Shown in pieces: positions 351 to 51,628 of a DNA stretch of 56,904 nt. Each line of letters begins with the position of its first letter. Position 1 is the stretch's first letter. Under the pieces are notes generated by a model. It saw only the letters and a list, made by a program, of their open reading frames with translations, did no database searches and was not told where the DNA came from. Both the position numbers and the translations under genes were made by a program. Origin of the DNA: a virus (taxonomy: Duplodnaviria > Caudoviricetes); IMG/VR virus record IMGVR_UViG_3300024355_000518, positions 1 to 56,904 of that record; one strand, written 5' to 3'.

Positions 351-378
351 TTATCGGTTACTTGTTGAAAAACCTTTA
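351..378 (-). promoter_or_regulatory. sigma-28 (FliA/SigD)-type promoter for pentapeptide protein 2 and downstream genes
   Basis: Minus strand TAAAGGTT-N12-ACCGATAA; FliA consensus is TAAAGTTT-N11-GCCGATAA. Confidence 0.75.
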
Positions 379-1272
379 GGGGTCGGCACGTATCGAGATA
401 ACACCGGACAAGATAGCACCGGACAAGTTAGCACGGGACAATGTAGCACTGAACAAGTCAGCACAGGACAAGATAGCACCGGACAAGTCAGCATCGGACA
501 AGTCAGCACGGGACAAGTTAGCACAGGACAAGTCAGCACGGGACAAGGTAGCACTGGACAAGTTAGCACCGGACAAGATAGCACGGGACAAGTCAGCACG
601 GGACAAGGTAGCACCGGACAAGATAGCACGGGACAAGTCAGCACGGGACAAGGTAGCACCGGACAAGTCAGCATCGGACAATGTAGCACTGAACAAGTTA
701 GCACCGGACAAGATAGCACGGGACAAGTCAGCACCGGACAAGTTAGCACCGGACAAGATAGCACGGGACAAGTCAGCACGGGACAAGGTAGCACCGAACA
801 AGTCAGCACAGGACAAGATAGCACCGGACAAGTCAGCATCGGACAAGTTAGCACGGGACAATGTAGCACTGAACAAGTCAGCACAGGACAAGTTAGCATC
901 GGACAAGTCAGCACCGGACAAGTTAGCACCGGACAAGATAGCACGGGACAAGTCAGCACCGGACAAGTTAGCACCGGACAAGATAGCACGGGACAAGTCA
1001 GCACGGGACAAGGTAGCACCGGACAAGATAGCACGGGACAAGATAGCACCGGACAAGTCAGCACGGTACAAGTTAGCACGGAATAAGTCAGCACGGTACA
1101 AGTTAGCACCGGACAAGATAGCACCGGACAAGTCAGCACGGTACAAGTTAGCACCGGACAAGTTAGCACCGGACAAGATAGCACCGGATAAATCCGCCCT
1201 CTTTCCGCCCTTACCTGTTAACCACAACTTATGGTCTTCTAATACCTGCTCTATATTAATAGTCACATTCAT
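376..1272 (-). CDS. Pentapeptide-repeat protein 1 (about 50 A[DNIT]L[SFY]x repeats)
   Basis: 298 aa. N-terminus [31 protein letters not shown] is paralogous to protein 2. Has an upstream promoter. Confidence 0.9.
   Translation of the reverse strand: MNVTINIEQVLEDHKLWLTGKGGKRADLSGAILSGANLSGANLYRADLSGAILSGANLYRADLFRANLYRADLSGAILSRAILSGATLSRADLSRAILSGANLSGADLSRAILSGANLSGADLSDANLSCADLFSATLSRANLSDADLSGAILSCADLFGATLSRADLSRAILSGANLSGADLSRAILSGANLFSATLSDADLSGATLSRADLSRAILSGATLSRADLSRAILSGANLSSATLSRADLSCANLSRADLSDADLSGAILSCADLFSATLSRANLSGAILSGVISIRADP
403..1190. repeat. 15-bp tandem repeat array (about 52 units, e.g. GGACAAGTCAGCACG) encoding the pentapeptide repeats
   Basis: 15-nt periodicity is directly visible, with variation at a few positions. 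Confidence 0.95.
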
Positions 1273-1304
1273 ATTTGCCCTTTCGCCTTTACCTGTTACT
1301 TATC

Positions 1305-1332
1305 TTATCGGTATTTTCTTTGCAATACTTTA
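1305..1332 (-). promoter_or_regulatory. sigma-28-type promoter for pentapeptide protein 1
   Basis: Minus strand TAAAGTAT-N12-ACCGATAA, intergenic, about 33 nt upstream of ATG 1272. Confidence 0.75.
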
Positions 1333-1339
1333 ATATTAT

Positions 1340-1525
1340 TTAGTCCACCGTCTTATCGTGGTAGACGTGTTCCACGGTAACTTCAGTCAGGTCACCATCA
1401 TTTGTCGATAGTTCCATCTGTTGGACTAAGGTGTCTATCTTTTTTTCAGCCTCATCAAAGGATGAAGCCTCAACCCGGAAATCTACCTTGACGAAAACCA
1501 ATGCGCTATAATAAAATGTTTTCAT
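1340..1525 (-). CDS. Small hypothetical early protein (61 aa)
   Basis: ORF with AAGGGA RBS, preceded by the TAACAGGTAAAA leader motif. Confidence 0.7.
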   Translation of the reverse strand: MKTFYYSALVFVKVDFRVEASSFDEAEKKIDTLVQQMELSTNDGDLTEVTVEHVYHDKTVD

Positions 1526-1605
1526 ATTAGTTCCCTTCGCTTTTACCTGTTAATGTAACGGGCACCAAAGGTGCCCGTCGAAAATTGAGAATGGTATTCC
1601 CTATC

Positions 1606-1779
1606 TTAGAATTTTACAACTTCAAACTGTTTTATAAAGTCATCTATGTCTGTTATCTCACCAGCGTCAACCAGTTCCCATGCCCAACTTTTTAAAAATT
1701 CCTCCGCATCGTGTGCAGATTCAAAATCTTGGAATCCCTGGTTAATTCCATGTTTTACAATTTTGAAAAATGTTTCCAT
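1606..1779 (-). CDS. Small acidic hypothetical protein (57 aa, METFFKIVKHG...EVVKF), not in the ORF track
   Basis: Translated by hand. GAGG RBS and TAACAGGTAAAA leader upstream; fills the gap in the operon. Confidence 0.7.
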   Translation of the reverse strand: METFFKIVKHGINQGFQDFESAHDAEEFLKSWAWELVDAGEITDIDDFIKQFEVVKF

Positions 1780-1835
1780 GTTTTACCTCTTTGGCTTTTA
1801 CCTGTTAAATGCACCAAACATCAAAGGTGCCCCCA

Positions 1836-2522
1836 TTATGCCGCCAGCAATAACACATGGTCTAAGAGTCCGATGTCCTTGTTCAACGCATTATATTCCG
1901 TTCTACTTCGCAGCCTGGATAGTTCGTTGACCAAGTTATACAAACCCCAAGCGGTGTGAGGATTGTCCTCAGCCCTGTGTGTTTGATTGACTATTTGGGC
2001 TATGGCTCTATCTTTTACCGTATTAGAGACGGGCAAACTAGCGACAACGTCGATAGGATTTTTTATTAGTACTTGACTAGCCTCATAGGCTGAATCAAAT
2101 ACTTCTCCCGATGTTATAGATTCAACTTGATTTTCAATCAAGGTAGGCAACTCATCTAAGAATGAGTTTATCTTAGGTCCCGAAACGTGTCTGATTCGGG
2201 CTGAAAAGAGGTCATTAAACCGCATCATCAATCCATTAGCGCAAATTAAGCGATAAAGACCAATTCCGATAGACAAAGCCTCGCCACCGGTATTGCAATT
2301 GCGGACATAGAGACGGGGAACAATATATCCGCCTAGCGATGCATCGTCTATTGCGTACTCTTTAAAATCAATGCTAGCGATAAGCCTGTCCTTAGTTTTC
2401 GACCAGTGCGCTTTTAATAGGCGATTATTGGCTACCTTGGTCAAGACCTCGAGGATGTCATTATTGTTGACAGTGATAAATTTTGGTCCGACGTTAACAT
2501 CGAGTGAGCGATTGATAAACAT
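1836..2522 (-). CDS. DUF932/DUF945-family protein
   Basis: Motif NCNTGGEALSIGIGLYRLICANGLM and C-terminal TAWGLYN match my recollection of the family. Confidence 0.7.
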   Translation of the reverse strand: MFINRSLDVNVGPKFITVNNNDILEVLTKVANNRLLKAHWSKTKDRLIASIDFKEYAIDDASLGGYIVPRLYVRNCNTGGEALSIGIGLYRLICANGLMMRFNDLFSARIRHVSGPKINSFLDELPTLIENQVESITSGEVFDSAYEASQVLIKNPIDVVASLPVSNTVKDRAIAQIVNQTHRAEDNPHTAWGLYNLVNELSRLRSRTEYNALNKDIGLLDHVLLLAA

Positions 2523-2547
2523 GAAAGTCTCCTTTGGTTTTTACCTG

Positions 2548-3195
2548 TTAAGCCACGTTATTTAATACTGCATTGCCTTTTTTAGCCCTAGCACCAAACA
2601 TAACTAGCCCAATCTTATTGTTGGTCGTTGACCAAGCTACTGTGTCATCCTCATTGGCCAAGTCGTAACCCGATTCCAGCGCTTGTTCAGTTGAGGCAAA
2701 TATTCGGGAATGTCTATCATTATTGACGTCAATCAATTTATCTTGACGGCCGCCTAAAGAAAAAATAATGATAAAATTGAGGGGCAGTGATATTCCATTT
2801 TTTTGAATATGCTTAAACATGGCAACAGATTTTGTATAAGCGTAAAAGATTATATCAGGATTTTGTTCTGCTATCGCGGTCCATTTTAAGACATATTCTG
2901 CGGAATAAAAGTCACCAGATGAATGGATACGAATGGCGACCTTGTTTCCCTTCGACTTTTTCCTCAATCGAATCAGCTCACCATTGATGGTCGGAATAAA
3001 TTCGGCAGATTTGCTTAGTTCGAACATACGATTGCGATAGCCATTCGCTGATGGATAGCGTATTTGTTCGAGCGCTGCATAGCAGAATTGTTTGCAACTC
3101 CCTGCTCCCGGGCAAGTGTTGATAGCAGGTAAGGCAAAGTTGAATGTTAAGACACTAGCTTTGTTCATTTTTTTATTTTGTTGGAAAATATTCAT
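2548..3195 (-). CDS. Phage GP88-like (radical-SAM-like Cys cluster) protein
   Basis: TCPGAGSCKQFCYA, IRIHSSGDFYS and FYAYTK motifs. Confidence 0.7.
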   Translation of the reverse strand: MNIFQQNKKMNKASVLTFNFALPAINTCPGAGSCKQFCYAALEQIRYPSANGYRNRMFELSKSAEFIPTINGELIRLRKKSKGNKVAIRIHSSGDFYSAEYVLKWTAIAEQNPDIIFYAYTKSVAMFKHIQKNGISLPLNFIIIFSLGGRQDKLIDVNNDRHSRIFASTEQALESGYDLANEDDTVAWSTTNNKIGLVMFGARAKKGNAVLNNVA

Positions 3196-3206
3196 GTTAG
3201 TGTTCC

Positions 3207-3656
3207 TTATGAAATTAGTTTTAATTTGCTAGTCCGATTAATATTTGAGGGAACTAATAATTTTCGGCCTAAGAAAAGAGACGCTAGTTCAGCTCCAGCC
3301 GCCCAATCGGGATAGTCTCCGTCACTTGATATAGTGATTCTATCCTGCAATACATCATTCAAAATACACAAGGATGCCACAACTAAAACATCGTATGGCT
3401 TTCTAGCAGTTTTACAAAAGTTAAAGGATTCATTTAACTTAAAAGTCTCTCTTAAGAAAAAATCCTCGTGGCCATTGTCACGACTGCCGTTAAACTTGAC
3501 GCCGGCATATTTCCCCGGTTTAGTATGAGCTGTATATCCCGATATGCCACCATGTTTTTGAGCATAGTCATAGACTAACATTTGTATCTCTTCTATAGCT
3601 TTCTTATAGAGTTTTTCGTTGCTTTTGTTAAACCTGAAATAATGTGTGTATCCCAT
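3207..3656 (-). CDS. Conserved hypothetical phage protein
   Basis: MGYTHY N-terminus and FNFCKTARKPYD motif; tightly packed in the operon. Confidence 0.7.
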   Translation of the reverse strand: MGYTHYFRFNKSNEKLYKKAIEEIQMLVYDYAQKHGGISGYTAHTKPGKYAGVKFNGSRDNGHEDFFLRETFKLNESFNFCKTARKPYDVLVVASLCILNDVLQDRITISSDGDYPDWAAGAELASLFLGRKLLVPSNINRTSKLKLIS

Positions 3657-3657
3657 C

Positions 3658-3924
3658 TTATTTTTCCTTTCTTAATAGAGATTCCTGCGCGAGTCTAGCA
3701 GTTTCCTTTAATATTATTTCCCTATTCGATTCTGAGTAAGTGTCACTTCTCATCCAATCGGGAACTTCTGGAGTGAACTGGTTTTTTTCTATTTTCTTTA
3801 GTTCTTTTATTATTTGTTTTATCGTGTATTTGGATACATTGCCAACTTTTGAGAATATTCCAGACAAGGCAAGATTAACTGTGTGATTTATTAATAATTT
3901 ATCCAATTGTTTGGTGCGTTTCAT
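3658..3924 (-). CDS. Hypothetical protein
   Basis: 88-aa ORF, GGGGG RBS, abuts both neighbours. Confidence 0.7.
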   Translation of the reverse strand: MKRTKQLDKLLINHTVNLALSGIFSKVGNVSKYTIKQIIKELKKIEKNQFTPEVPDWMRSDTYSESNREIILKETARLAQESLLRKEK

Positions 3925-3925
3925 G

Positions 3926-4054
3926 TTATTTTCCCCCGTGATTAGTTCTATTATTTAGTTCTTCGAGATATTCATTTTCAGAGATGAGCCCTTGTTCAAG
4001 GAAAACTTCCAGCTCGACTAGGTTATACATGGATAAATCTATTTTGATTTTCAT
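3926..4054 (-). CDS. Small hypothetical protein (42 aa, MKIKIDLSMYN...), not in the ORF track
   Basis: Translated by hand. ATGA overlap with the upstream stop; GGGAG RBS. Confidence 0.6.
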   Translation of the reverse strand: MKIKIDLSMYNLVELEVFLEQGLISENEYLEELNNRTNHGGK

Positions 4055-4218
4055 ACATTCTCCCTTTTAAATATGGTGATATTTGTTAAGTCAGTCTCTT
4101 TTACCCACCGGCATTCATATTCTGTTATAATCAAATACGCCAGCTTTTGTTTGGCTGCCGAATAATAAGAATCCATGATAAACACTGATTCATCGTTATA
4201 TATGGCATGGCCTAGCAT
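4051..4218 (-). CDS. First gene of the early arm, hypothetical (55 aa, MLGHAIYNDES...), not in the ORF track
   Basis: Translated by hand. GGAGG RBS; lies just downstream of the promoter at 4272-4298. Confidence 0.65.
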   Translation of the reverse strand: MLGHAIYNDESVFIMDSYYSAAKQKLAYLIITEYECRWVKETDLTNITIFKRENV

Positions 4219-4271
4219 ATGTCCTCCGTATCAGATATTTTTTATTTAGTGCATCACTGTGTACATAAATC

Positions 4272-4298
4272 TTTTCGGTATGCCATTAAAAAGCTTTA
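4272..4298 (-). promoter_or_regulatory. sigma-28-type promoter at the head of the minus-strand arm
   Basis: TAAAGCTT-N11-ACCGAAAA, canonical FliA spacing, about 54 nt upstream of the first ATG. Confidence 0.65.
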
Positions 4299-4583
4299 GT
4301 ACAATCTTTTAACCCGGTAAAATGATAGGGATAATAGCCCATCGAATATTAATTGTTACTATAATGTGCTAAAGTGAACCATGCTTTCTCTCCTGTGGAT
4401 ATGATGAGCTGATAAAGAGGGGTATGATGTATGGTGAGGTTATCCTTATTCCCCCTCTCTATAAAAAGGGAAACAGTGTCAGGGAGCTTGATTAGAAGGG
4501 GTACAAGTGCCGCCGCCCACCCCCCGGTACCAGTAATTTACCTCGCTACAAACTGGTTTACACACGGGGGAACCTTTCCATAC

Positions 4584-4612
4584 TTGACCCATATCCCCGA
4601 CTATGCTACCCT
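4584..4612 (+). promoter_or_regulatory. sigma-70-type promoter for the HNH gene
   Basis: TTGACC-N17-TACCCT with an extended -10 TG. Confidence 0.55.
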
Positions 4613-4629
4613 ATACTTGGAGGTACTAT

Positions 4630-5253
4630 ATGGTCATGAAGAGACGTAACCACACAGGTCATAAATATCACCACCTTATGTTACTTTACCCTACCAAAAG
4701 TGGCGGTACCGGTAAAGGCGTCTATTGGATGGCTAAATGCGACTGTGGTGAGATTAAAGAGGTGAGGGGGAGTGAGGCGGCTGCCGGCAAGATTAAGACT
4801 TGTGGAAAGTGCGAATATCATTACGGTCTCTTACGGGAGGGTGGGGAGCAGGGAGGAAAGGTACGGGGGTGGACAAAATCCATCCGCGTCCAGCATACCA
4901 GATATATTAGGTCGGCTGTCAAACGGGGTATCGAGTGGCGGCTAAGTCCTGAAGAATTCTTGCAATTAATAAAGAAGAACTGTACTTACTGTAACGCTTC
5001 CCCTCGCATATACAATAGTAAGCCCAATTTCGGCCGCGGTAAGACGGTAAAGACGTTAATGAACGGAATTGATAGGAAAGATTCCTCATTGGGTTATATT
5101 TCCGGTAACGTGGTACCTTGTTGTAGTGTATGCAATAAGATGAAGATGTCGATGGCAGAAAGTGATTTCCGGATACAAATACTAAAGATAGCAAAGTGTT
5201 ATTTAGAGAAAGCTGGATACGAATCAGATATCAGTGATGGTGATGAAAAATAG
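4630..5253 (+). CDS. HNH-type (Cys-rich) homing endonuclease
   Basis: N-terminal W..KCDCG...TCGKC zinc module and C-terminal CTYC...NGIDRKDSSLGYISGNVVPCCSVCNKMK. GGAGG RBS favours the start at 4630. Confidence 0.8.
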   Translation: MVMKRRNHTGHKYHHLMLLYPTKSGGTGKGVYWMAKCDCGEIKEVRGSEAAAGKIKTCGKCEYHYGLLREGGEQGGKVRGWTKSIRVQHTRYIRSAVKRGIEWRLSPEEFLQLIKKNCTYCNASPRIYNSKPNFGRGKTVKTLMNGIDRKDSSLGYISGNVVPCCSVCNKMKMSMAESDFRIQILKIAKCYLEKAGYESDISDGDEK

Positions 5254-5282
5254 TTGACACGTCATTTATTGTGTGATACAGT
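5254..5282 (+). promoter_or_regulatory. sigma-70-type promoter driving the 5289-5720 non-coding element and TerS
   Basis: TTGACA-N17-TACAGT with an extended -10 TG. Confidence 0.8.
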
Positions 5283-5288
5283 CATATT

Positions 5289-5720
5289 GTAGGGACGAGA
5301 ATATCGTCTCGAACGGGTTATTTGGAATCCGAGCTACCGAGGTTAGAATCACTGTTGAGTCAGTATCAAACTGAGAGTACCAACCTTGCAGGCAGGAATC
5401 GGGCCGATAATTCGGGACAGTTACTTAGAGCGAACTAGGAACTGGTCGGGTGTGGTTAGTGATTCTTTCACCGCCCTCCTCCGATTCAGGGGGCCCCACC
5501 GGGGTTCAAATCAGCAGAGCGGCATCCAGTCCTAATTAGCAACATGTAACAAGTAGCCACCTAGTCGCGAAAGCGGCCTTGGTAGGCCACACCCCTAAGA
5601 AGCAACTCATCCAGTAGGTTACTGATGAGGTGTAAAAGGTACCGATACGTCCCGTTTATCAGGGGCTAATAGTTACGGTACAAAGTAGTACCTACCTGTA
5701 CAAGTAGTACAGGTAGGACA
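5289..5720 (+). ncRNA. Putative large structured ncRNA (about 430 nt), family unassigned
   Basis: No ORF of 60 aa or more in about 495 nt of a gene-dense genome. Own promoter. Perfect long-range complementarities (5345-5353/5458-5466, 5396-5402/5481-5487, 5448-5455/5587-5594), a CGC-GAAA-GCG tetraloop and an 11-bp terminal hairpin at 5691-5717. Confidence 0.6.
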
Positions 5721-5749
5721 AGGACAACTATGTTTACGGTAAGAACGAT

Positions 5750-6277
5750 ATGAGTTTAAAAGACATCAGCAAATTACTAGAGGCGGCCCAAACTGACCTC
5801 ATCTTCACCCCGACTCCCGACATGCGGAGGGTAAAAGCTGCCTTCTGGACCAAGGTATCAGACAAAGTAACGCTAGTAGATACCTCCAACATTACCTTAA
5901 CGGCCGCCCAACAGGTAGAGAAAGACCGCCGACTAACCAAATGGTGGTCCCTACCCGGATTCCAAGAATGGTTTCAAAACAGGGAAGAGTTTAGGGAAAG
6001 GTTGGAGTACTTGGCCGATATTGCCCTCGATACTTTGGAGCAGGTATTAGTGGACCCCGCTGCTAACACCAGTGCAAAAGTCTCTTGCGCCAAGTTAGTG
6101 TTAGAGGCAGCTAGTAAAATGCCTCGCAAAGAGAACGAAAGTAGCCCTTCCAAGTTGGAAACCATGTCCCGTATCGAGCTCGAAGATTACGTCCGACGTA
6201 ATTTAAAGTACTTATCCCCCACAGAACCCTTGACAGAAGGCGAACCTTCTGCTACAGTAGAAAAAGCTAATACTTAG
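5750..6277 (+). CDS. Probable terminase small subunit
   Basis: 175 aa, helical. ..TLEQVL..ANTSAKVSCAKLVLE and ETMSRIELEDYVR resemble TerS C-termini; upstream of TerL. Confidence 0.55.
   Translation: MSLKDISKLLEAAQTDLIFTPTPDMRRVKAAFWTKVSDKVTLVDTSNITLTAAQQVEKDRRLTKWWSLPGFQEWFQNREEFRERLEYLADIALDTLEQVLVDPAANTSAKVSCAKLVLEAASKMPRKENESSPSKLETMSRIELEDYVRRNLKYLSPTEPLTEGEPSATVEKANT
6230..6258 (+). promoter_or_regulatory. sigma-70-type promoter for the 6297-9244 structural cluster
   Basis: TTGACA-N17-TACAGT with an extended TG, inside the 3' end of TerS. Confidence 0.75.
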
Positions 6278-6296
6278 GCAGGGAAAGGGAACTTGC

Positions 6297-6923
6297 TTGA
6301 TTCTGAAGACGGGATTACAAGAAATGGTAGTGAAGGCCAGCCGGACTTCGGCAGGGGTTATCACTCAAGACTTGTCGATTCAATCCGATGCCGCCCTCTT
6401 CTTCTTATGGATTAATTCAACTGAGGGAAACCTTACGGTAGAAGTATTTGCCCTCACCGGTGATGGTAAACAGGTTTCCCTTCTCACCTTCCCCACTACC
6501 AATCAACCTACCACTCAACTAATACAAAAGAGAACCGGTACCACGTCTACCCGCCTCCGAGTAGTGATAACTCACACCGCGGCTTGTGACTTGGAACTAT
6601 CGGCAAGAGCGGTATCTACCGGTAGCTCTGATACCCGCATACTAGGGGGTGCCACCCTTAAGGTTAGTCAACATACCGTCAATAGCGTTGTTTCCTTATT
6701 GGTACCCGCTTCCCTAGTAGACAGGGCAGCTATCGCCATCAAGAACTGGTCTACCTCCGGTACCATATACATTGCTGAAACGCAAGCAAAAGCCAATCAG
6801 GGACAAGGGTGGCCTATCGGACCAAAGGACGCCCTCGGTCTGGATATCCAAGCCGGTGTCGAGCTTTATGCTAGGGCAGTTGACGGTCCGTGCGACATTA
6901 GAATAATCGAAAGTGGGGGCTAA
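6297..6923 (+). CDS. Beta-rich virion structural protein (putative)
   Basis: 208 aa, Thr/Ser/Val-rich, in the late operon. Confidence 0.6.
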   Translation: MILKTGLQEMVVKASRTSAGVITQDLSIQSDAALFFLWINSTEGNLTVEVFALTGDGKQVSLLTFPTTNQPTTQLIQKRTGTTSTRLRVVITHTAACDLELSARAVSTGSSDTRILGGATLKVSQHTVNSVVSLLVPASLVDRAAIAIKNWSTSGTIYIAETQAKANQGQGWPIGPKDALGLDIQAGVELYARAVDGPCDIRIIESGG

Positions 6924-6925
6924 TC

Positions 6926-7312
6926 ATGGCAGCCGTTACCCCTTCCGGCTCATCCGGTAGTATAGTCGAAATCACAAATACAGCGGTAGCTCCCGCGTAC
7001 AACATTGTGGTAACCTCACTTCGAGTCAACCCCGGTACTAGGATATCATACACCTTTCCCGACGGCTCCACTTACCTCACTTTCCGCGTCAGACAATTGG
7101 GTGAAAAGGTACGCTTCTTTTCCGCCCTTAATGCAACTGGCTACTATACCACTGACACCTACTCTTCTGGTAGTGTTAATACTAAGCAAGTAACCTTTTG
7201 TTGGGAAAATGACAATGGCGTCGATGTCGAGCTCACCTATTGGGGTCCTGCCGGTATCGTAGAAAGTAGTGGATTTTTGCTACTTGAAACGGGAGACTAC
7301 CTTGAGCTATAA
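6926..7312 (+). CDS. Putative structural protein
   Basis: C-terminal LLLETGDYLEL is a motif typical of phage fibre-associated proteins. Confidence 0.55.
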   Translation: MAAVTPSGSSGSIVEITNTAVAPAYNIVVTSLRVNPGTRISYTFPDGSTYLTFRVRQLGEKVRFFSALNATGYYTTDTYSSGSVNTKQVTFCWENDNGVDVELTYWGPAGIVESSGFLLLETGDYLEL

Positions 7313-7333
7313 TAATCACGGAGGATTTATTAT

Positions 7334-7711: not shown

Positions 7712-7732
7712 CTAGTTAAGTAAGGATGTTCT

Positions 7733-43011: not shown

Positions 43012-43171
43012 CTTTGTTTCCTTTCAATTGATATTCTTCAACTTGACAATCTTCTTCCCTTTTCCCCTCTTGTAATAAGGTAGCCCTTTTCTTATTGGCC
43101 TCCCTCTTACTAGACCAGATACTGTCAATGACACCTTCACTAAAGTCGTATAAGATGTACACCTTTTTCAT
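43004..43171 (-). CDS. Small hypothetical protein (55 aa, MKKVYILYDFSEG...), not in the ORF track
   Basis: Translated by hand; ATGA overlap with the upstream gene. Confidence 0.6.
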   Translation of the reverse strand: MKKVYILYDFSEGVIDSIWSSKREANKKRATLLQEGKREEDCQVEEYQLKGNKDV

Positions 43172-43787: not shown

Positions 43788-45664
43788 GCTCCCCCTTCAC
43801 ACTCCGATTCAATCGTACTAGTATCGGAGGAGAGACTGCTTATCGGTCTGACCTTAGCAATACTTGAGAGGTATTCGTCCTCACTAATTTCCTCATACGG
43901 AGCTTGCTTAAACCCGTGGTCGGAATGAAGTAAGAAGGAACATGTCTTCACCTTCTCATCATAATTCTTTTGTAACCATTCTCTGATGCCAGGCAACTCT
44001 TCCTTCTTGTAATATACCGTACATGAGACGGCATTATCTGACCAATTCTTTTGTAGCCATGATACCGTTTCCAGTTGTTCAATCGCGCTAGTAGTAGCAG
44101 ATAGTTGGGTACCTTTGGGGTAGGAGCAAGGAAAGGATACCACATACGTATTATTGTCAGGGGTACCGTCAAAGTTGTATTGGGGTTCGACATGGTATCC
44201 ATGACTGATACATACATTGAGTAAGGGACTATTGCTAGCTACCCTGATACGGCGAATGAAATATTGAGAATAGCCGGGATGACATCCTGGAGTAACTCCT
44301 GGTAACAGACTCATAGTACCGCTCGGCTTCACCGTAGTCAACTTGATGCTAGGGGGCCACCCCATCTTAGCCGAGTACTCCTTATCATATTCCCTTAGCT
44401 GTTCGTATACTGAAGGGAGCCACTCTTTTTGTTCTTTACTCGCCTGCATAAAGCCGGTGATACCAATACCCATTCTCATATTCTCGTGTACTACTTTCTC
44501 CGTTACTGGCTGATGGCAAGGTAACCGGAGGGAGTGTTTATTAATCTCATAAAGGGTAGCCGCTACCTTGAACAACTCTCCTTTTGACGATATGTTTGGT
44601 AAAAAGATTTCTGCCAAGCAGCATGTCTCCATATTGTTGAGGGACTGCTCAGCACATGGGTTAAATATCATGACACCCTTATCCGGGTATTGCGTCTCCC
44701 CAGTTCGGCCCATTGATTGGGCGAGGCGAAGATTGATGAGACCATACGGTTCCCCATTACCTTGATAGCCTAACCAAAATTGTTCAGGCAATTTATCAAA
44801 TTGATTACATACCACACTGTTGTTGCTCATCGCTCTCCAATTGGGGACATTACCCAAATCCCACCTCTTGGCGGAGAGATATTGCATATCGTCGTAATCG
44901 CCCAAAGCAATTTGCGCTGACCGTCTAACGTTACCCGCTACTACGATATATCCGATAATGTTCATGATGTCGAGAACATCAATCGGGTTGAGTTTCTTCT
45001 TTGCTCTTTTATTGAGGACGGAACATATCTTATCGATACCCCAACATAACTCTTCCGGTCCCGAGGCTAGCCCACCAAATCCCTTTATTGGAGCTCCCTT
45101 GCCTCTAATCAGAATAGTGGAGTAAGAGAATGACTTCCCCGTCTTAAAGTAAGATAACAATACCTGACGCAAGAGTTCGACCCATCCCTCTCTACTATCC
45201 GGTACAATGAAGTCGGCATCTTTGGTATCACGGCGGACAATATTGAGGGCACCTTTCACCTTAGGCAATTCGTATACATGTTCCTTTTGGATATTGTATC
45301 CCACTCCGCTCCCCAACATTAACGCGTCCATGGTCCATGTAAAGGGGTCGATGGGGCTATCGACTACTACTGCCGCACAATTTTGCAAACTAAAGAGGCC
45401 CAACCTGTCAACGGTATCGGTACCCAACTGCCACAGAAATCGACCAGCAACGGAGCCCTTCATATTGAGATGGATGTATCTGATATATTCCTTCTTCTCT
45501 TCAGAAAGATTCATTCTGAGTTGGGCATCGCACGCCGCTATAATCCTTTCCACCGTAGCAGGATACTCTTCAGTAGGAGAATTGATATCTGATTCCACTA
45601 ACCGTCTACTATACGTTCTCTTATACGTTAAATAACCCACCGGACCCCAAGGAATGTTTACCAT
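43772..45664 (-). CDS. nrdJ: Class II (B12-dependent) monomeric ribonucleotide reductase
   Basis: YKRTYSR, AGRFLWQLG, LQNCA, DSREGW, NPCAEQ, TTVKPSGT and C-terminal CEGGACPVR; no small subunit gene. Confidence 0.92.
   Translation of the reverse strand: MVNIPWGPVGYLTYKRTYSRRLVESDINSPTEEYPATVERIIAACDAQLRMNLSEEKKEYIRYIHLNMKGSVAGRFLWQLGTDTVDRLGLFSLQNCAAVVVDSPIDPFTWTMDALMLGSGVGYNIQKEHVYELPKVKGALNIVRRDTKDADFIVPDSREGWVELLRQVLLSYFKTGKSFSYSTILIRGKGAPIKGFGGLASGPEELCWGIDKICSVLNKRAKKKLNPIDVLDIMNIIGYIVVAGNVRRSAQIALGDYDDMQYLSAKRWDLGNVPNWRAMSNNSVVCNQFDKLPEQFWLGYQGNGEPYGLINLRLAQSMGRTGETQYPDKGVMIFNPCAEQSLNNMETCCLAEIFLPNISSKGELFKVAATLYEINKHSLRLPCHQPVTEKVVHENMRMGIGITGFMQASKEQKEWLPSVYEQLREYDKEYSAKMGWPPSIKLTTVKPSGTMSLLPGVTPGCHPGYSQYFIRRIRVASNSPLLNVCISHGYHVEPQYNFDGTPDNNTYVVSFPCSYPKGTQLSATTSAIEQLETVSWLQKNWSDNAVSCTVYYKKEELPGIREWLQKNYDEKVKTCSFLLHSDHGFKQAPYEEISEDEYLSSIAKVRPISSLSSDTSTIESECEGGACPVR
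43840..43867 (-). promoter_or_regulatory. sigma-28-type promoter inside the nrdJ 3' end, driving the helicase-containing cluster
   Basis: TCAAGTAT-N12-ACCGATAA. Confidence 0.65.
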
Positions 45665-45670
45665 AATACT

Positions 45671-46294
45671 TTATCCTTCCTGTTCAATTAGTTTGCCAAT
45701 CGTAGGTAACTCTCTCTTAAAGATTTCCCATACACTATCCGCTATATCTCGATGCTCTTTCTGTGTTTCTGGTGACCTCCTTATTTGTAAATAATGAATC
45801 CAACTTCTAATACTGCCCTTCATATATAACTTAGTTTGCGTAGAAAGAGGCAACAAGAAACGAGCTTGTTCCTTAGCTATTCCCTTACTTAAAGCTGTGG
45901 TGTATAAAGTACTTGTTAATTGGTGCAATTCTTTTTGCATCTGAGTAAACCATTCTTTTGTTTTACTATCCAAATCGTCAATACTATTTTGCCTGTTATT
46001 GATGTCTTGCCTTCTCGCTTCATATAATTCAAAGGATTGTACCTCTGCATATCGTTGACTAAACTCTTGAAAAGAGAATGATTTGTGACGAAGGATTTGA
46101 GCGGCAATAGCTCTACTTGTTTTTATTTCCACCGTCATGTCAGCCATTTCAAATATAGACCAATGACCGTGCTTGATACAATAGGATAGTAATTTTTCTA
46201 TTTTAGGATTACCTTGACGGGGACTACTAACCCGGGCGCAGTAGGCAATAATTCGTTCCCCTTCAGGAGTGATACTAATTAATCTTGTTTCCAT
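45671..46294 (-). CDS. thyX: FAD-dependent thymidylate synthase
   Basis: [34 protein letters not shown] and TQKEHR. Confidence 0.95.
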
Positions 46295-46656
46295 ATTTCC
46301 ACCATCTGGCTTAATAGTTCCACCAACGCATGTTCCAAACTTTGCGCGATTATCTCTTCTACTGCATCGTCGATAACGCTAGCTACCCCATTGACATAGA
46401 GAACGGCGTGCGCCCATTCATGTAAAAATACTTGCCACTGTTCACTAGGTAATAACGATGATGACACCGTTATTATTTTCTTTAACCCATCTGTCTCCCC
46501 AAAGATATCACTATCTACTTTTTTTACCTCTACTTGGAACGGAGCTCCTAGTACTAGTACTTCTTTCGGTAACGATGTGTTTGGCAAGGGCGATAGCGAT
46601 ATGTCCGATTTCTTCGGCATCTTCTTTATCTCCCTTTTTGTATTCTGGTCTAACAT
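46279..46656 (-). CDS. Small HExxH metallopeptidase-like protein (ImmA/IrrE-like fold)
   Basis: FGETD...I...[10 protein letters not shown]...EEIIA. Confidence 0.65.
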
Positions 46657-47065
46657 AATTTCTCCATGATGCGGGGTGGATGCCGAGGACGTACTCGGAC
46701 TTACTACATGCTAACACGATACCCACCGCTTTGAGAAGGGAGGCTACCGCATTCTGGTTAAAGCTACTGGTAGCGGGGATATCTTCGTATATGAGGAGGT
46801 CAAAGTTGTAAATGGAGGAGAGCACCTTGATGGAATTGCCAAGCGTTCTTGCCCTCCGCCAGAGCTCGGTACCGCTACCACCAGTAGACAAGGTACCACT
46901 GTCTAGTAATTCCCCTTGCTTGTATATGGCCCACCCCGGAGAGGAGGATGTACTCCCGATACTGGGGTCGATGACGAGCACCATACCAGTGAGAAGGGGG
47001 GTAGTTAATTTACTGACACTTTCGTACAGCTTAGTCTTCTTACTAATATCGGCTACACTCTTCAT
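46511..47065 (-). CDS. RuvC-like Holliday junction resolvase
   Basis: LVIDPS...GWAI...LIYED...PASWR...KEDAEEI RNase H fold pattern. Confidence 0.75.
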   Translation of the reverse strand: MKSVADISKKTKLYESVSKLTTPLLTGMVLVIDPSIGSTSSSPGWAIYKQGELLDSGTLSTGGSGTELWRRARTLGNSIKVLSSIYNFDLLIYEDIPATSSFNQNAVASLLKAVGIVLACSKSEYVLGIHPASWRNYVRPEYKKGDKEDAEEIGHIAIALAKHIVTERSTSTRSSVPSRGKKSR

Positions 47066-47220
47066 ACTTTTTCCTTATTGATATAGTTACTTAAATAGTA
47101 TAGGGGAACTGCGAATATAGCTATCAGTGTAACAAAGAAAAAGTAAGCAAAGATAGCGAACCCTAATAATACATATTGGGTAGCCTTTTTCCATGTGTTG
47201 ATGTTGTCCCACTCTATCAT
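47062..47220 (-). CDS. Small membrane protein (52 aa, MIEWDNINTW...), not in the ORF track
   Basis: Translated by hand; GGAGG RBS, long hydrophobic stretch, ATGA overlap with the RuvC-like gene. Confidence 0.6.
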   Translation of the reverse strand: MIEWDNINTWKKATQYVLLGFAIFAYFFFVTLIAIFAVPLYYLSNYINKEKV

Positions 47221-47221
47221 G

Positions 47222-47704
47222 TTATTTTCTCCTCCTAAAAAGATTACTAACTAATTTATTCCACTCTTCCCCTATTTCAAAATCGGATAATATATAAGTG
47301 TTCATGATATCTGTACTATCATCATAATGGTCCAGTCCCAAGGCACAATGTCCCAACTCGTGGTATATGAGGGTAATTCTAGTTTGAGCAGAGAACCACA
47401 TCCAATGGTCACGATTGATAAAAATTCCATAAGAGAAATCACAGTATCCCAACACGCCTTTACTATTCACACTTAGCTCATCGGAAAATACGGCGTATTC
47501 TGTAGGGAAGCACGGTACATTTCTCTTCCTGGCATCGATAGAAAACTTTACTATCGGCTCGTGCATCAGGGGGTCGTACCCTTTGGTAAAGAGATTGTTT
47601 ACAGTACATAGTCTTTCTGTATAGGGGGTATAAGAATAGTTGGAGATGTCTCTCCCCTCTTTACCGCACCCCGTTAATAGTATCGCTAACAATAGTTTTT
47701 TCAT
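47222..47704 (-). CDS. Lipoprotein metzincin-type zinc metalloprotease
   Basis: MKKLLLAILLTG|C lipobox; HELGHCALGLDH...IM (zinc motif plus Met-turn). Confidence 0.8.
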   Translation of the reverse strand: MKKLLLAILLTGCGKEGRDISNYSYTPYTERLCTVNNLFTKGYDPLMHEPIVKFSIDARKRNVPCFPTEYAVFSDELSVNSKGVLGYCDFSYGIFINRDHWMWFSAQTRITLIYHELGHCALGLDHYDDSTDIMNTYILSDFEIGEEWNKLVSNLFRRRK

Positions 47705-47725
47705 AGTGTCCCCTCCTTGAAACTC

Positions 47726-47753
47726 TTATCGGTAAGTTCAAGGGGAAACTTTA
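47726..47753 (-). promoter_or_regulatory. sigma-28-type promoter for the metalloprotease-RuvC-ThyX-NrdJ operon
   Basis: Intergenic TAAAGTTT-N12-ACCGATAA (perfect -35), followed by AAGGAGG RBS. Confidence 0.8.
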
Positions 47754-47764
47754 ATTGATTTCAA

Positions 47765-50700
47765 TCACTCTTCCAGCTTGATACCAGCCAAAGTTTTCGC
47801 TACTGCTGCACTCCCCTTCAGGGGACAGGTGCCACCCAGAAGGGAGTTTAACTCCCGATAGGCATCGACTTCCATTATCTTCTTAGCAGCTTCCACCTGC
47901 TCATCAGGTACCTCAATGATGGATTCATCATGCCAATCCATTACTATGGGGGTCCAACTTAGCTTTGCCTCAGTCAAGAGATGAGCAGTAATCCTCGAAT
48001 ACAATTGAAGAATATCGTGACCAGTACTTTGAACTACACGATTGAGGATATCTTTCAAGTATTTATCGTCTATACAGATAGGTCGACCATACCCATTCTC
48101 TACCCAGCCACCGTTAGCTTTCCACTCATCTTGTAACCACGTGATGTAAGACATCACTCCACTCTTTGCTTCCATCAATGAGTTATGCATCTCCTCCACT
48201 TCGCGGAGGGACATCTCGACACCGTTCAAAGAGAGTATCTTCTGTTTCTTTTTCACTCCCGAGCCGTAGTTATCTGATAGGATGAGCAGCTTCGCTATCG
48301 ACCGTTCCTTTTTGAATGCCTTCTTGGTAGCCTCTATCGCCTCCGCTGTAGGGGCGTAGGGGTCGTATCCCAATGAGGTTAGCTTTGGACCGATGCCGGC
48401 CATCATACTACCGTAAAAGAGATAGATATCATTCTTCTTAGCGGATGGTCCATATAAAGCTAGTAGATTATTGTCTTGTGATAGCTCCGCTGTCACCACC
48501 ATCTCCAGTGCATTCACGTCACAATCGACAAAGGAATGTCCCGGTCGCGAGATGAATCCTGAAAGGGTACCCCTCGTCTTCGGACATTGAGATGTCACGT
48601 AAGTACTTGTACCGCGGCGCACTAGTAGGTGTTCCGTTTCCACGCTAAGGCAGTAGACCATTCCGTCGTAAACTTGAGTAGTTACATTGGATTTTTTATA
48701 TTCGCGATGCGAGCCTTTTCGGATGTACAAGGAGTAGGCTAGTGGTCTCTTGAACTTGCGGACCCCATACCCGTGACGAACAAGTAGTGCCTGGATAGCG
48801 TCAACAACGTCTTCATGAATACAGTAAAATTCAAAGGCATCTTTAGCTGTTCCAACCTTATGCCCGTCCCAAAAGGATAGCGCTTCCACAAAAGTTTCTA
48901 CTTGATTATCCCCGAGAACAGATAAATCAAACTTCTTGTCCGCCGTCAATAGGGGATGTTGAAACTCGACACGGTACCAAGAATGGACGCCGTTAGCGCT
49001 GACATGATTGGCTGGCACTCCAACTAACTCCGTAAATTTTTGTATCTTTCGGTCTCTCTTAAAACCAAAACGCCACACATAAGGATTCTTTACCCGCGCA
49101 CTGGAGCCATCCGCTTGGACAGCGGCTGCCATCCATATGTCTCGCTCGCTAAAGAACGATTCCGTTGTAGTGCTGGGACGGATGCTGGCATGTGCCATGC
49201 ACTCCTTGGTTCTGAGTTTGTGGATGTCAGATGCCGTTGCAGTAACTCGTCTGACTCGCTCGGTTTCAGCAGCGTGGTTTAAGTCACCGATTAATAACAG
49301 CCTATGGTCTGGAGTTACAAGTAGCGGGGTGTTGTTAGCCATCCCGATAGCGACCATGTCACCCGAGTAGTGCCTTTGCGTTGTGGCTTGAACAGGTCCC
49401 CACTGACCAAACAAGGTATCAGGTTGAATGGTCCACACCAATTCACCGATTTGTAAATCCTTGATTAGTTTCCATCCAGACGGAGTTAATGCTTCGGTAT
49501 CGGGGGCAAAGCATTGTTGTAGGTTGGGACTCTTGCCAGCCAGTCTTCCCGTCACGGTACCTGGCATCTTGAAGGAGGGGTGGATAGTGGGTCGATGTTC
49601 GACTCGCTCGATATAGTCCGCCACGTAGCTGAGCTCCTTCACTTTCAGCGCCCTCCCGATAAGGATTTGACCAACATCGCCCATCGACTGGAGGGCGTCC
49701 TCACTAACGGCAGGTAGCCCACTCTCCGTTTGCAGTGATACCTTGTTATTTAGCTTATCATAGAGGAGCCATCGAAGGTGGTCTCCGGACTGCAAGTTGA
49801 ATGAGTAGCCGGGCTCGATACCGAGCTCGATACGGTGTCTCTTCCCTTCCCAGTTTTTCCAATTCTTACTCTCCTCGAGCGGCTGTCGCTCGAGCTCGTC
49901 CCATTTTAACCAGTTCTTACTTATCGTTACCCCGTCCTTTAAGAAGCGCGGGGGTTCCTTTCTTTCCTTTTTCTTCTTATGTCGGGCCGGCTCGGTAGAG
50001 AGGAACTCGGTCACCTTTGCCGTTTCAAATTCCTTGATGTGGGGGGCGACTAGAGGATGTTCTCGAAAGGAACGTTCGCTATTGACGATGGCCGCCTCTA
50101 ACTCGGTAGCATATCCTACCCAGTGCTGGCGGTCGGTCATGATGCCAGCTATCTTCTGGTCGATGTGCACTAAGACGTGAGGGAGGAAATCACATTGATG
50201 ATATTCGTCAAGCTTTGGAAACCGGCGGAGGAGGGGAGCCAAATGTTCTGTGTAAAGGAGGTACGTAGCTTCGGCATCGAGGACGCAATACCTCCCAATG
50301 ATAGCAGGTGGCGCCCTCCACATTTCTCCTTTCATCGGTGCCTTGTTCTGTTTACAATATCCATTATCCACTAACCAGGTATCTAATTCAGTTTCATTGG
50401 TATCGCTCCACATTAAGACATCTACCATCGCTTCCTTTAGTCCCCACCGCTGCCCCTCGAATCCCTCACTCGCACATTGCATATAGAGACCAAAGGTACA
50501 AGCTAACCAATTGGCATGCTGACCGAGGTCTCTCTTTATCCACCCCCCGTCAAAGTACACATTGTGTGCTATTAATCCCTTATGTTGGGTGAGCAATTGG
50601 ATTAGTTCGGCTATCGATTCATCTGATAACTGGTCCATCGATAAGTAACAGGAGCCCTCGTCCCAAGCGAGACCGACACCGACCACATACGCCTCACTAT

Positions 50701-50899
50701 CGGGAAGGGAATAATCGTTACCCCTCGTTTCGAAATCCACTGCTACTATCGGCGCGTTGACAGCTTGTCGTAGCAGTGCTGTAACGTCGGTATCAGGTGG
50801 GCAGACAAGTTGATACAATGGTCCGCTTCGGGCCGGAGTAGGTTTCGGTTCCAGTAACACGAACCGGGGGTGAGTGGTCAACGTAACATGGTCAGACAT
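47765..50899 (-). CDS. polA: Family A DNA polymerase with 3'-5' exonuclease, containing an intein
   Basis: Exo motifs DFET, AHNVYFD and YCVLDA; TVTGRL..SPNLQ; motif A DVNALE; motif B R..AK...NYG; motif C HDE. Start MSDH (50899) has an RBS. Confidence 0.92.
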   Translation of the reverse strand: MSDHVTLTTHPRFVLLEPKPTPARSGPLYQLVCPPDTDVTALLRQAVNAPIVAVDFETRGNDYSLPDSEAYVVGVGLAWDEGSCYLSMDQLSDESIAELIQLLTQHKGLIAHNVYFDGGWIKRDLGQHANWLACTFGLYMQCASEGFEGQRWGLKEAMVDVLMWSDTNETELDTWLVDNGYCKQNKAPMKGEMWRAPPAIIGRYCVLDAEATYLLYTEHLAPLLRRFPKLDEYHQCDFLPHVLVHIDQKIAGIMTDRQHWVGYATELEAAIVNSERSFREHPLVAPHIKEFETAKVTEFLSTEPARHKKKKERKEPPRFLKDGVTISKNWLKWDELERQPLEESKNWKNWEGKRHRIELGIEPGYSFNLQSGDHLRWLLYDKLNNKVSLQTESGLPAVSEDALQSMGDVGQILIGRALKVKELSYVADYIERVEHRPTIHPSFKMPGTVTGRLAGKSPNLQQCFAPDTEALTPSGWKLIKDLQIGELVWTIQPDTLFGQWGPVQATTQRHYSGDMVAIGMANNTPLLVTPDHRLLLIGDLNHAAETERVRRVTATASDIHKLRTKECMAHASIRPSTTTESFFSERDIWMAAAVQADGSSARVKNPYVWRFGFKRDRKIQKFTELVGVPANHVSANGVHSWYRVEFQHPLLTADKKFDLSVLGDNQVETFVEALSFWDGHKVGTAKDAFEFYCIHEDVVDAIQALLVRHGYGVRKFKRPLAYSLYIRKGSHREYKKSNVTTQVYDGMVYCLSVETEHLLVRRGTSTYVTSQCPKTRGTLSGFISRPGHSFVDCDVNALEMVVTAELSQDNNLLALYGPSAKKNDIYLFYGSMMAGIGPKLTSLGYDPYAPTAEAIEATKKAFKKERSIAKLLILSDNYGSGVKKKQKILSLNGVEMSLREVEEMHNSLMEAKSGVMSYITWLQDEWKANGGWVENGYGRPICIDDKYLKDILNRVVQSTGHDILQLYSRITAHLLTEAKLSWTPIVMDWHDESIIEVPDEQVEAAKKIMEVDAYRELNSLLGGTCPLKGSAAVAKTLAGIKLEE
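48587..49513 (-). mobile_element. Intein (309 aa) with a LAGLIDADG-like homing endonuclease in DNA polymerase A
   Basis: PNLQQ|CFAPDTEALTPSGW...VTPDHR...AAAVQADGS...LSFWDGH...MVYCLSV...YVTSQ|CPK. Removing it restores the PNLQxxP motif. Confidence 0.92.
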
Positions 50900-50924
50900 A
50901 CTACCTTCTCCTTTGCTGAGCAAC

Positions 50925-50954
50925 AAAAAAAGAAGGGGGAGCGCTACTTCCCCC
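50925..50954 (-). terminator. Rho-independent terminator between the SSB-like gene and polA
   Basis: Minus strand GGGGGAAG-TAGCG-CTCCCCC followed by TTCTTTTTTT. Confidence 0.7.
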
Positions 50955-50996
50955 AATACCAATCGCTGAAAGACTGGCTACTATATCTATCTTACA

Positions 50997-51293
50997 TTAA
51001 CCTTGGTTAGCTGCCTCTTTCAAGATGACAGTGTAAGGGGGTTTCCCTGCTGCGATATCTTCAGCGGAGTTCTTGTAAAGGTCAACGTACACCCGTTGTC
51101 CTGCTTTGATATCAGCACCGATTTCAGTGACGACACCTGCTTCCGCCTTACTCTTCTCTGACTTCGGCTTGAAGAGACCAGTTCTAAGAAGAACTGTAGC
51201 CGGTGCCTTCTTCTCCATGGGGCGGTTGTTACCGCTAGCTTGCGCTGGTTTGTTGCCAAAACGATTGCCTTGAGACTGATTACTGTACGCCAT
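50997..51293 (-). CDS. Small putative ssDNA-binding-like protein
   Basis: 98 aa beta-rich, highly biased codons, own promoter and terminator, next to polA. Function inferred from context only. Confidence 0.45.
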   Translation of the reverse strand: MAYSNQSQGNRFGNKPAQASGNNRPMEKKAPATVLLRTGLFKPKSEKSKAEAGVVTEIGADIKAGQRVYVDLYKNSAEDIAAGKPPYTVILKEAANQG

Positions 51294-51334
51294 AATAAAG
51301 ACCCTTTCTTAGAAACGAGGCGACATTGCCATCG

Positions 51335-51628
51335 TTAGTTCATATTACTCTTATCGGATTCTACTACAGAAACTTTAGCTTCCTCTCTAAGTATCTCAAA
51401 CACATGCTCAACTTGCTTCTTTACCAGCTTCTCTACCCGTTCAACTTGTTCGTAAGGAACCATCTCCACATAACAACTCATGGTGACATCAGTAAGGGTA
51501 GTCAACGTTTCATTGACTCCGAGTACTTGAGTCGTGCTGTTGACCCAATACAATAGGGCATCTAAAGAATTCTTTTTAAAGTACTCTAACTCCTCTTCAC
51601 TCAACACAGATTTTTTTGACTTCTTCAT
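51335..51628 (-). CDS. Hypothetical protein (start MKKSKK at 51628)
   Basis: GGAGG RBS before ATG 51628. Confidence 0.6.
   Translation of the reverse strand: MKKSKKSVLSEEELEYFKKNSLDALLYWVNSTTQVLGVNETLTTLTDVTMSCYVEMVPYEQVERVEKLVKKQVEHVFEILREEAKVSVVESDKSNMN
51351..51377 (-). promoter_or_regulatory. sigma-28-type promoter for the SSB-like gene and polA
   Basis: TAAAGTTT-N11-TCCGATAA, one mismatch from the FliA consensus at canonical spacing. Confidence 0.8.

Follow-up and report, generated by a model that had tools for sequence, protein, structure and literature searches.

Flagellar-sigma-like promoters before the replication genes of an uncultivated phage genome

We analyzed IMG/VR virus record IMGVR_UViG_3300024355_000518, the genome of an uncultivated phage, at its full length of 56,904 bases (the window). 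We found that its replication arm is divided by seven promoter-like sites of the class used by the flagellar sigma factor of bacteria (FliA, sigma-28 or SigD). Judged by its letters, the phage motif is indistinguishable from a flagellar sigma promoter, save for one extra spacer base in five of the seven sites. Our preferred reading, to which we give a probability of roughly 0.6, is that a host FliA-type RNA polymerase holoenzyme transcribes the replication arm of the phage. The position of replication genes behind flagellar-sigma-like promoters suggests that infection is tied to host motility.

Promoter-like sites of the two arms

We scanned both strands of the window with the pattern T[AC]AAGNNT-N11/12-NCCGA[AT]AA, which the first-pass annotation had proposed together with seven sites. 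All seven were present and all were on the minus strand (351-378, 1305-1332, 4272-4298, 40927-40954, 43840-43867, 47726-47753 and 51351-51377); the plus strand had no match. In 300 first-order Markov shuffles of the window the pattern occurred 0.033 times on average and at most once. The spacer was N11 in two of the sites and N12 in the other five, and the boxes T[AC]AAG and CCGA[AT]AA were present in 7/7.

The sites had been said to point into gene starts, and this was borne out. Counted from the last base of the -10 box, six of them were 21, 32, 51, 52, 53 and 57 nt from the next start codon on the same strand; the site at 351 was 140 nt from the ATG at 210, in a gene that crosses the junction of the record. 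Three (40927, 43840 and 51351) were within the 3' end of the upstream open reading frame (ORF), the last of these counting as such only if the 126-amino-acid (aa) ORF 51335-51715 is real. Thus boxes, spacing within one base of N11, sense orientation and a short distance to genes were all those of the sigma-28 class. The sites also covered the early and replication arm as proposed, forming seven co-directional units. Because they divide the whole minus arm, each gene of this arm has such a site upstream. The sites are listed below with their scores from the matrix described in the next section; G1, G2 and G5 are relatives of the phage, also introduced there.

350-379, minus strand: sigma-28-type promoter CTAAAGGT-N12-ACCGATAAG, 27.7 bits; before the second pentapeptide-repeat gene (ATG 210 to 56454; Pentapeptide Pfam match)
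1304-1333, minus strand: sigma-28-type promoter, 27.0 bits; 32 nt 5' of pentapeptide-repeat gene 376-1272, with about the same 5' untranslated region (5'UTR) as at site 350
4271-4299, minus strand: sigma-28-type promoter, first of the minus arm, in the divergent region, 25.1 bits; 53 nt 5' of ORF 4051-4218; slot filled in G1, G2 and G5
40926-40955, minus strand: sigma-28-type promoter in the 3' end of ORF 40872-41387, 28.6 bits; 51 nt 5' of ORF 40597-40875; slot filled in G1, G2 and G5
43839-43868, minus strand: sigma-28-type promoter in the 3' end of the class II ribonucleotide reductase gene, 25.9 bits; 52 nt 5' of ORF 43458-43787; slot filled in G1, G2 and G5
47725-47754, minus strand: sigma-28-type promoter in the 60-nt gap after the DNA polymerase gene, 27.5 bits; 21 nt 5' of metallopeptidase-like ORF 47222-47704; slot filled in G1, G2 and G5
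51350-51378, minus strand: sigma-28-type promoter, 29.6 bits; 57 nt 5' of ORF 50997-51293, which precedes the DNA polymerase A gene 47765-50962; slot filled in G1, G2 and G5
19136-19165, plus strand: eighth sigma-28-type promoter TAAAGTTC-N12-GCCGATAT, 21.3 bits; 68 nt 5' of tail-fibre gene 19233-20933

The eighth site was missing from the first-pass annotation, and comparable sites were found 5' of fibre genes in G1, G2 and G5. Its gene, which encodes a Peptidase_S74 chaperone domain, is alone among the virion genes in having a promoter of this type. The genes of the window form two divergent arms.

1-4218, minus strand: minus arm, part 1; small ORFs, a GP88-family protein, a DUF932 protein and two pentapeptide-repeat proteins
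39546-56904, minus strand: minus arm, part 2 (replication and nucleotide metabolism); helicase, class II ribonucleotide reductase, ThyX and resolvase
39546-56904, minus strand: further genes of part 2; DNA polymerase A with intein, ClpP-like protein, SLT transglycosylase, dUTPase and dNMP kinase
4603-39423, plus strand: plus arm (packaging and virion); HNH-like protein, small-terminase-like lead, fibres and large terminase
4603-39423, plus strand: further genes of the plus arm; SU10/P22-type portal, M15 peptidase, capsid and SU10-type adaptor

The first-pass annotation had placed the replication arm on sigma-28 and the virion arm on sigma-70. We found that the two-arm split is real. It is not strict, since one fibre gene on the virion side is preceded by a conserved sigma-28-type promoter.

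The two pentapeptide-repeat genes have almost the same 5'UTR. A block that recurs, AACAGGTAAA(A/G)G..., occurs on the minus strand at about 320-345, 1273-1300, 1526-1560 and 1780-1810, just 5' of four successive minus-arm genes.

We found that sigma-70-type sites mark the plus arm. Eight had been assigned to the plus strand and 8/8 were present (4584, 5254, 6230, 9302, 13931, 21820, 29303 and 29612). On the sense strand of the plus arm, TTGAC-N17/18-TAnnnT was seen nine times, whereas 300 shuffles gave 1.04 ± 0.98 and never more than 5. The sense strand of the minus arm had it twice, with 0.96 expected, and the best sigma-70-like sites on the minus strand there matched 9-10 of 12 positions and had poor first hexamers, in agreement with the earlier view that this arm is without a good sigma-70 site. 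Further strong sigma-70-type sites, which the first-pass annotation did not contain, were found at 7284, 7538 (12/12), 11329 and 18068. Shine-Dalgarno-like 4-mers precede 50 of 70 genes of the window, and together with the canonical sigma-70 boxes they would fit a host with standard promoters and ribosome-binding sites.

4584-4612, plus strand: sigma-70-type TTGACC-17-TACCCT, head of the plus arm; overlaps the called start of the HNH-like ORF; similar sites in G1 and G5
5254-5282, plus strand: sigma-70-type TTGACA-17-TACAGT with TG; followed by a conserved structured RNA candidate
6230-6258, plus strand: sigma-70-type; 39 nt 5' of ORF 6297-6923; same slot in G1, G2 and G5
7538-7567, plus strand: sigma-70-type TTGACA-18-TATAAT, 12/12; 166 nt 5' of tail-fibre gene 7733-9244; 12/12 in the window, G1, G2 and G5; within coding sequence
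9302-9330, plus strand: sigma-70-type; after terminator 9263-9291, 5' of ORF 9361 and the large-terminase/portal operon
13931-13959, plus strand: sigma-70-type, 11/12; 5' of scaffold-like gene 14020 and major capsid gene 15174; slot filled in 6/6 genomes
21820-21848, plus strand: sigma-70-type TTGACA-17-TACGAT with TG
29303-29330, plus strand: sigma-70-type TTGACA-16-TATAAT, 12/12; same slot in G1, G2 and G5
29612-29640, plus strand: sigma-70-type; 25 nt 5' of ORF 29665-31947; same slot in G1 and G2

The called ATG of ORF 4603-5253 is probably wrong because the site at 4584 overlaps it. Directly 3' of the site at 5254, positions 5282-5610 (plus strand) contain a candidate structured RNA of about 300 nt. 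This stretch aligns across the window, G1, G2 and G5, genomes that are otherwise barely alignable. RNAalifold gave it 68 pairs; in 25 of these, one or more of the four sequences shows a compensatory change. One RNA-library contig spans 5306-5606, with an adapter-like loose end at 5606. The candidate had no Rfam match and contains a 49-aa ORF (5386-5535).

FliA promoters and other phages

We built a matrix from 28 sites of the window, G1, G2 and G5, all of which have the CGA core, and ran it on 49 kb plus 30 kb (79 kb) of Escherichia coli K-12. There were five matches of at least 15 bits and none elsewhere in the 79 kb: 31 nt 5' of tar, 5' of motA beside the small RNA MotR, 5' of fliC, 43 nt 5' of flgM, and 33 nt 5' of flgK. 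All of these are textbook FliA-dependent operons. Weaker matches included one of 12.1 bits 5' of fliD.

Five longer relatives (G1-G5) were taken from IMG/VR by a helicase search and a capsid-alignment search and compared whole.

G1: 41 of 75 ORFs with a match in the window, mean identity 62%; 7,220 bases alignable with the window by blastn
G2: 40 of 84 ORFs with a match, mean identity 58%; 4,267 bases alignable
G5: 43 of 87 ORFs with a match, mean identity 54%; 574 bases alignable
G3: 28 of 76 ORFs with a match, mean identity 42%; none alignable
G4: 22 of 55 ORFs with a match, mean identity 45%; none alignable

Conservation 5' of orthologous genes, put forward as a check in the first-pass annotation, was found. 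Five minus-arm slots were each filled in 4/4 genomes (the window, G1, G2 and G5), at 17.7-30.6 bits. The first is in the divergent region at the head of the arm and the second is 5' of the small gene that precedes DNA polymerase. The third and fourth are 5' of the orthologues of 47222-47704 and 43458-43787. The fifth is within the 3' end of the orthologue of 40872-41387, where conservation is confounded because the stretch is coding. The spacer sequences of the conserved sites vary between these four genomes. A sixth slot, 5' of a tail-fibre gene, was filled in the same four genomes, with fibre genes that are only partly orthologous. Sigma-70-type sites were equally fixed, 5' of the orthologues of 6297, 7334, 7733, portal, 14020 and 29665. 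The G4 record (~70% complete) had one sigma-28-type site of at least 20 bits, and a search of G3 and G4 by k-mer enrichment for a promoter motif of their own gave nothing clear.

We found such sites in other phages as well. A scan of IMG/VR for TAAAGTTT-N11/12-NCCGATAAG (16 fixed bases) gave at least 119 stretches, 80 of which were listed. The 80 listed loci (761 kb) had 105 matches to the looser pattern of the first-pass annotation, and 18 had two or more, mostly on one strand. Only ten of the 80 had protein similarity to the window (1e-8). The genes beside the listed loci are those of phages: terminase, homing endonucleases, ligase, ATPases and fibres.

Two further complete records, neither used in the matrix, carried arrays. 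G7 (118 kb, 39% G+C) has tail sheath and baseplate genes. Its eight sites of at least 20 bits are on one strand, at 83.5-91.8 kb, each 19-67 nt 5' of an ORF, in an arm with rIIA, rIIB, a GP88-like protein and many small ORFs. G10 (88 kb, 31% G+C) had 14 sites of at least 20 bits, 13 of them on one strand, among Erf, exonuclease, methylase and ATPase genes. In shuffles of either genome such sites averaged 0.07, with no more than one in any shuffle. The DNA polymerase and recombination genes of G7 do not follow sigma-28-type sites; what the genomes have in common is therefore "early-type, non-virion genes" and not "replication". For the other site-bearing phages megablast found no cultured relative, and the rIIA of G7 was at most 34% identical to its matches. 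With somewhat less than even odds, we suggest that unrelated uncultivated lineages (the 57-kb clade, the 118-kb phage with a sheathed tail and the 88-kb phage; 28-55% G+C) gave early transcription to the host flagellar sigma factor.

A gene pair on the minus strand at 2548-3656, for the GP88-family protein (PF17338) and a 149-aa protein, is common to the window, G5 and the unrelated G7 (88910-90754). In G7 the pair sits within the array of sigma-28-type promoters. It is absent from G1 and G2.

These comparisons also bear on whether the sites are promoters at all. They might instead be decoys that titrate FliA and so stop motility, signals for replication or packaging, or a repeated mobile sequence. 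The near-identical stretch downstream of sites 350 and 1304 points to duplication in part. Against this, the orientation is always that of the downstream gene, the distances to start codons are promoter-like (in 8/8 sites of G7 as well), and both boxes are kept while spacers and flanks vary between sites and between genomes. We regard an explanation other than promoters as very improbable.

What reads the sites

We found no gene for a phage sigma factor or a phage RNA polymerase, consistent with the first-pass annotation. Pfam searches of 75 ORFs of the window gave no sigma domain, and a lenient Pfam search (E ≤ 5) of 17 small ORFs gave nothing relevant. In six-frame searches (E ≤ 10) of records G000-G002, Sigma70_r2 and Sigma70_r4 were each found in 0/3, with positive controls in 11/14 and 14/14 genomes, respectively. 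Sigma70_r2 was likewise found in 0/3 of G003-G005 and in none of G006-G010. Six-frame searches for FliA_WhiG (TIGR02479) and for FlgM each gave a match in 0/5 records. The T7-type polymerase family PF00940 was found in 0/4 records, a weak negative because no control was positive either, and there was no PHROGs or Pfam match to a phage RNA polymerase. In addition, the bipartite motif with its variable spacer argues against a single-subunit (T7/N4-type) polymerase.

The best-placed helix-turn-helix-like candidate in the window is ORF 5750-6277, for which the protein atlas gave small terminase/helix-turn-helix as a lead. Its AlphaFold model is all-helical and of low confidence (pLDDT 62). Foldseek gave no match at E ≤ 0.001; the weak neighbours were TetR-type regulators and small terminases, and no sigma factor was among them. 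For ORF 6297-6923 the protein atlas gave no lead. Across the window, G1, G2, G5, G7 and G10, the only common protein family was a tail-fibre repeat (blastp E ≤ 1e-3).

Real promoters could also be read by a phage factor that Pfam misses, either a divergent sigma factor or a protein that retargets the polymerase (like T4 MotA/AsiA), with a specificity that converged on, or derives from, that of sigma-28. Bases outside the core recur across phages of 28-55% G+C (C before TAAAG, a T run after it, and G after CCGATAA) and could mean one common reader, but the scan pattern itself fixed TAAAGTTT and CCGATAAG. There are many ORFs without a known function, and twelve genes of the window are common to G1, G2 and G5 but not to G3, which has no sites despite sharing the virion module. 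On the other hand, no sigma domain was found in the six-frame searches of 11 phage records, the six complete site-bearing genomes share no family but the fibre repeat, the GP88 and 149-aa pair of the window, G5 and G7 is missing from G1 and G2, and the model of ORF 5750-6277 has no sigma-like fold neighbour. Moreover, the matrix selects genuine FliA promoters of E. coli, so that a host factor is sufficient in principle. We consider a phage-encoded reader unlikely, although less so than an explanation without promoters.

Since the phage has no recognizable sigma factor or RNA polymerase, host polymerase with the host flagellar sigma factor most likely reads the sites, and a host FliA-family sigma factor would be their most economical reader. 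The analysis shows the sites, their statistics and conservation, their equivalence to FliA promoters of E. coli and the absence of a detectable sigma gene; we infer that the sites fire, that FliA reads them, and any consequence for timing. In the mechanism we propose, the replication arm would consist of seven transcription units, each headed by a canonical sigma-28-class promoter, and the virion arm would be headed by near-consensus sigma-70 promoters, with one tail-fibre gene also under a sigma-28-type promoter. Host RNA polymerase carrying the host flagellar sigma factor would transcribe the replication arm, and phage development would then depend on a FliA-active, flagellated state of the host. 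The outcome would be a gate, in which replication genes are made only where FliA is free.

The gate is simpler than the clock that the first-pass annotation had proposed. In the clock, FliA drives early and replication genes in a flagellated cell, virion genes follow under RpoD, and the sigma switch of the host sets the timing; conjecturally, virions would be built when RpoD transcription dominates. The two-arm promoter split is real and conserved, and the sites of the unrelated G7 are in an early-looking arm of rIIA, rIIB and small genes, as a clock would have it. However, growing cells always contain sigma-70 holoenzyme, and consensus TTGACA/TATAAT promoters should not wait. The conserved sigma-28-type promoter of the virion fibre gene 19233 does not fit the clock, and a gene for a FlgM-like anti-sigma factor, by which the switch could be flipped, was found in 0/5 records. 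Nor is replication on FliA general, given the position of the polymerase and recombination genes of G7. We consider such a clock improbable, more so than a phage-encoded reader.

Several points weigh against transcription of the replication arm by host FliA. The matrix scores of the sites of the window, G1, G2 and G5 are circular because the same sites built the matrix; the independent evidence is the regular-expression count, G7, G10 and E. coli. The N12 spacer of five of the seven sites is one base longer than that of the five E. coli matches, all of which are N11. The G3 record, which is complete and has the same capsid and portal family, had no sigma-28-type site of at least 15 bits, and the trait is thus not universal in the phage family. 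Divergent phage sigma factors can escape Pfam. The near-consensus sigma-70 promoters of the virion genes would be expected to fire at once, which leaves temporal order unexplained. Positions 42001-52000 were present in 20 RNA-library runs from 18 studies, and in the four runs that were compared with 1-20000 all 30 bins were covered in 4/4; these four are assembled contigs only, which carry neither starts, strand nor levels and may include DNA carry-over. Finally, the host of the phage was not found by fibre, contig or Bdellovibrio-phylum searches, and its fliA gene and flagella are presumed.

In the host searches, 25 kb of the window was compared with cultured phages by megablast; a 38-nt ThyX match was all that appeared, and no cultured phage was close. 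With the portal as query, tblastn gave only Arthrobacter phages at 19% identity, and with DNA polymerase only intein-like stretches under ribonucleotide reductase genes. The tail fibre matched 61 loci scattered over many phyla when compared with one genome per species. A Bdellovibrio-like host was not supported: five such genomes had 0-1 strict sites each, and in 401 genomes of the phylum a 17.9-kb DNA search found nothing beyond ThyX-like matches (66-89% identity, 35-393 bases long). A 47-kb contig in a Nanoarchaeia metagenome-assembled genome encodes relatives of 24 proteins of this phage family, and is probably a relative of the phage in a mis-binned contig.

The window is a complete virus record, and its first and last 127 bases are identical (1-127 and 56778-56904). 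A pentapeptide-repeat gene crosses this repeat in frame, from ATG 210 to 1 and then from 56777 to 56454. Because the ORF from ATG 210 stays in frame across the junction, the 127-bp "terminal repeat" probably arose as an overlap in the assembly of a circular or permuted genome of ~56.8 kb; 127 is a common assembler word length. We take the record as a complete, circularly assembled genome of this size. The phage is an uncultivated freshwater one, and its portal and adaptor are of the podovirus type. The plus arm also encodes six large proteins without an assigned function. No tRNAs were found in the window and no Rfam families over its whole length, and its 1678-aa and 1150-aa proteins had no sequence relative in PDB.

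For DNA polymerase A (47765-50962, minus strand), an intein is indicated by weak Hint and Intein_splicing Pfam matches. By tblastn, its residues 480-869 match stretches annotated under phage ribonucleotide reductase genes, and the G1 orthologue is only 738 aa. Two conserved minus-strand ORFs, 51597-52568 (323 aa) and 40872-41387 (171 aa), have PD-(D/E)xK-like consensus motifs as judged by eye, and from their sequences they look like PD-(D/E)xK nucleases. The product of the former also has a C-terminal cysteine cluster and, again by eye, a Cas4/RecB-like look. At about 4440-4560, the divergent intergenic region has a non-coding block that is also conserved in G1 and G5; another block of this region is common to G2 and G5. 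The block at 4440-4560 might serve as an origin or a packaging site, or might encode an RNA.

Significance and comparison with known systems

Phages without a polymerase of their own are expected to start on the housekeeping sigma factor. If the sites are used as we propose, the phage programme would start only in a cell with a finished flagellum and released FliA. This would be a gate on host state, possibly coupled to adsorption to the flagellum, and a general, undescribed way for phages to sense host physiology without a regulator of their own. Dependence of the replication arm on the motility sigma factor would tie the success of infection to swimming versus sessile and planktonic versus biofilm life, and it would predict that infection aborts or goes dormant in non-flagellated cells. 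Arrays of sigma-28 promoters would also serve as a simple sequence marker for such phages in metagenomes, where the IMG/VR scan shows many candidates. Promoters of the sigma-28 class are read alike by sigma-28 factors of distant bacteria, and the role of FliA is therefore testable in E. coli or Salmonella with synthetic fragments. A full-text literature search, with most subscription journals and supplements outside its reach, returned no report of phage early genes on FliA promoters.

The closest likeness is to the class 3 flagellar promoters of FliA/sigma-28/SigD (TAAAGTTT-N11-GCCGATAA), with which the sites of the window share both boxes, their order and the spacing class. Unlike the bacterial promoters, the phage sites precede genes for replication, nucleotide metabolism and host takeover and not motility genes, and their dependence on FliA is putative.

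Infection by Salmonella phage Chi, a classic flagellotropic phage, is tied to the host flagellum. Chi (JX094499) has one sigma-28-type site of 25.2 bits at 1743-1771 (plus strand), in the 3' end of chi_001 and 215 nt 5' of the lysis genes; shuffles of the window gave about 0.03 sites per 57 kb. In contrast to the window, the first 50 kb of Chi has this one site of at least 20 bits and no array before early or replication genes. The virion genes of Chi are unrelated to those of the window.

The C3 podoviruses phiEco32 and SU10 encode an ECF-type sigma factor of their own, gp36, with the motif tAATGTATAtA (PMC4281155). The likeness is that the portal and adaptor of the window match SU10-type Pfam families, and that both are of a lytic type with a second promoter class beside sigma-70. 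The window differs in having no sigma gene and in a motif that is that of the host flagellar sigma factor. Its non-sigma-70 class serves early and replication genes, and theirs middle and late genes.

A similar division of labour is known from phage N4, in which late genes are transcribed by host sigma-70 holoenzyme and early and middle genes by other polymerases. N4 encodes polymerases of its own, brings them along, and uses hairpin promoters. The phage of the window resembles N4 in that its virion genes would be on the housekeeping holoenzyme and its earlier genes on another specificity. It differs from N4 in that no polymerase gene was found in the window (PF00940, without a positive control) and in that its early class has the form of a bipartite, sigma-type promoter.

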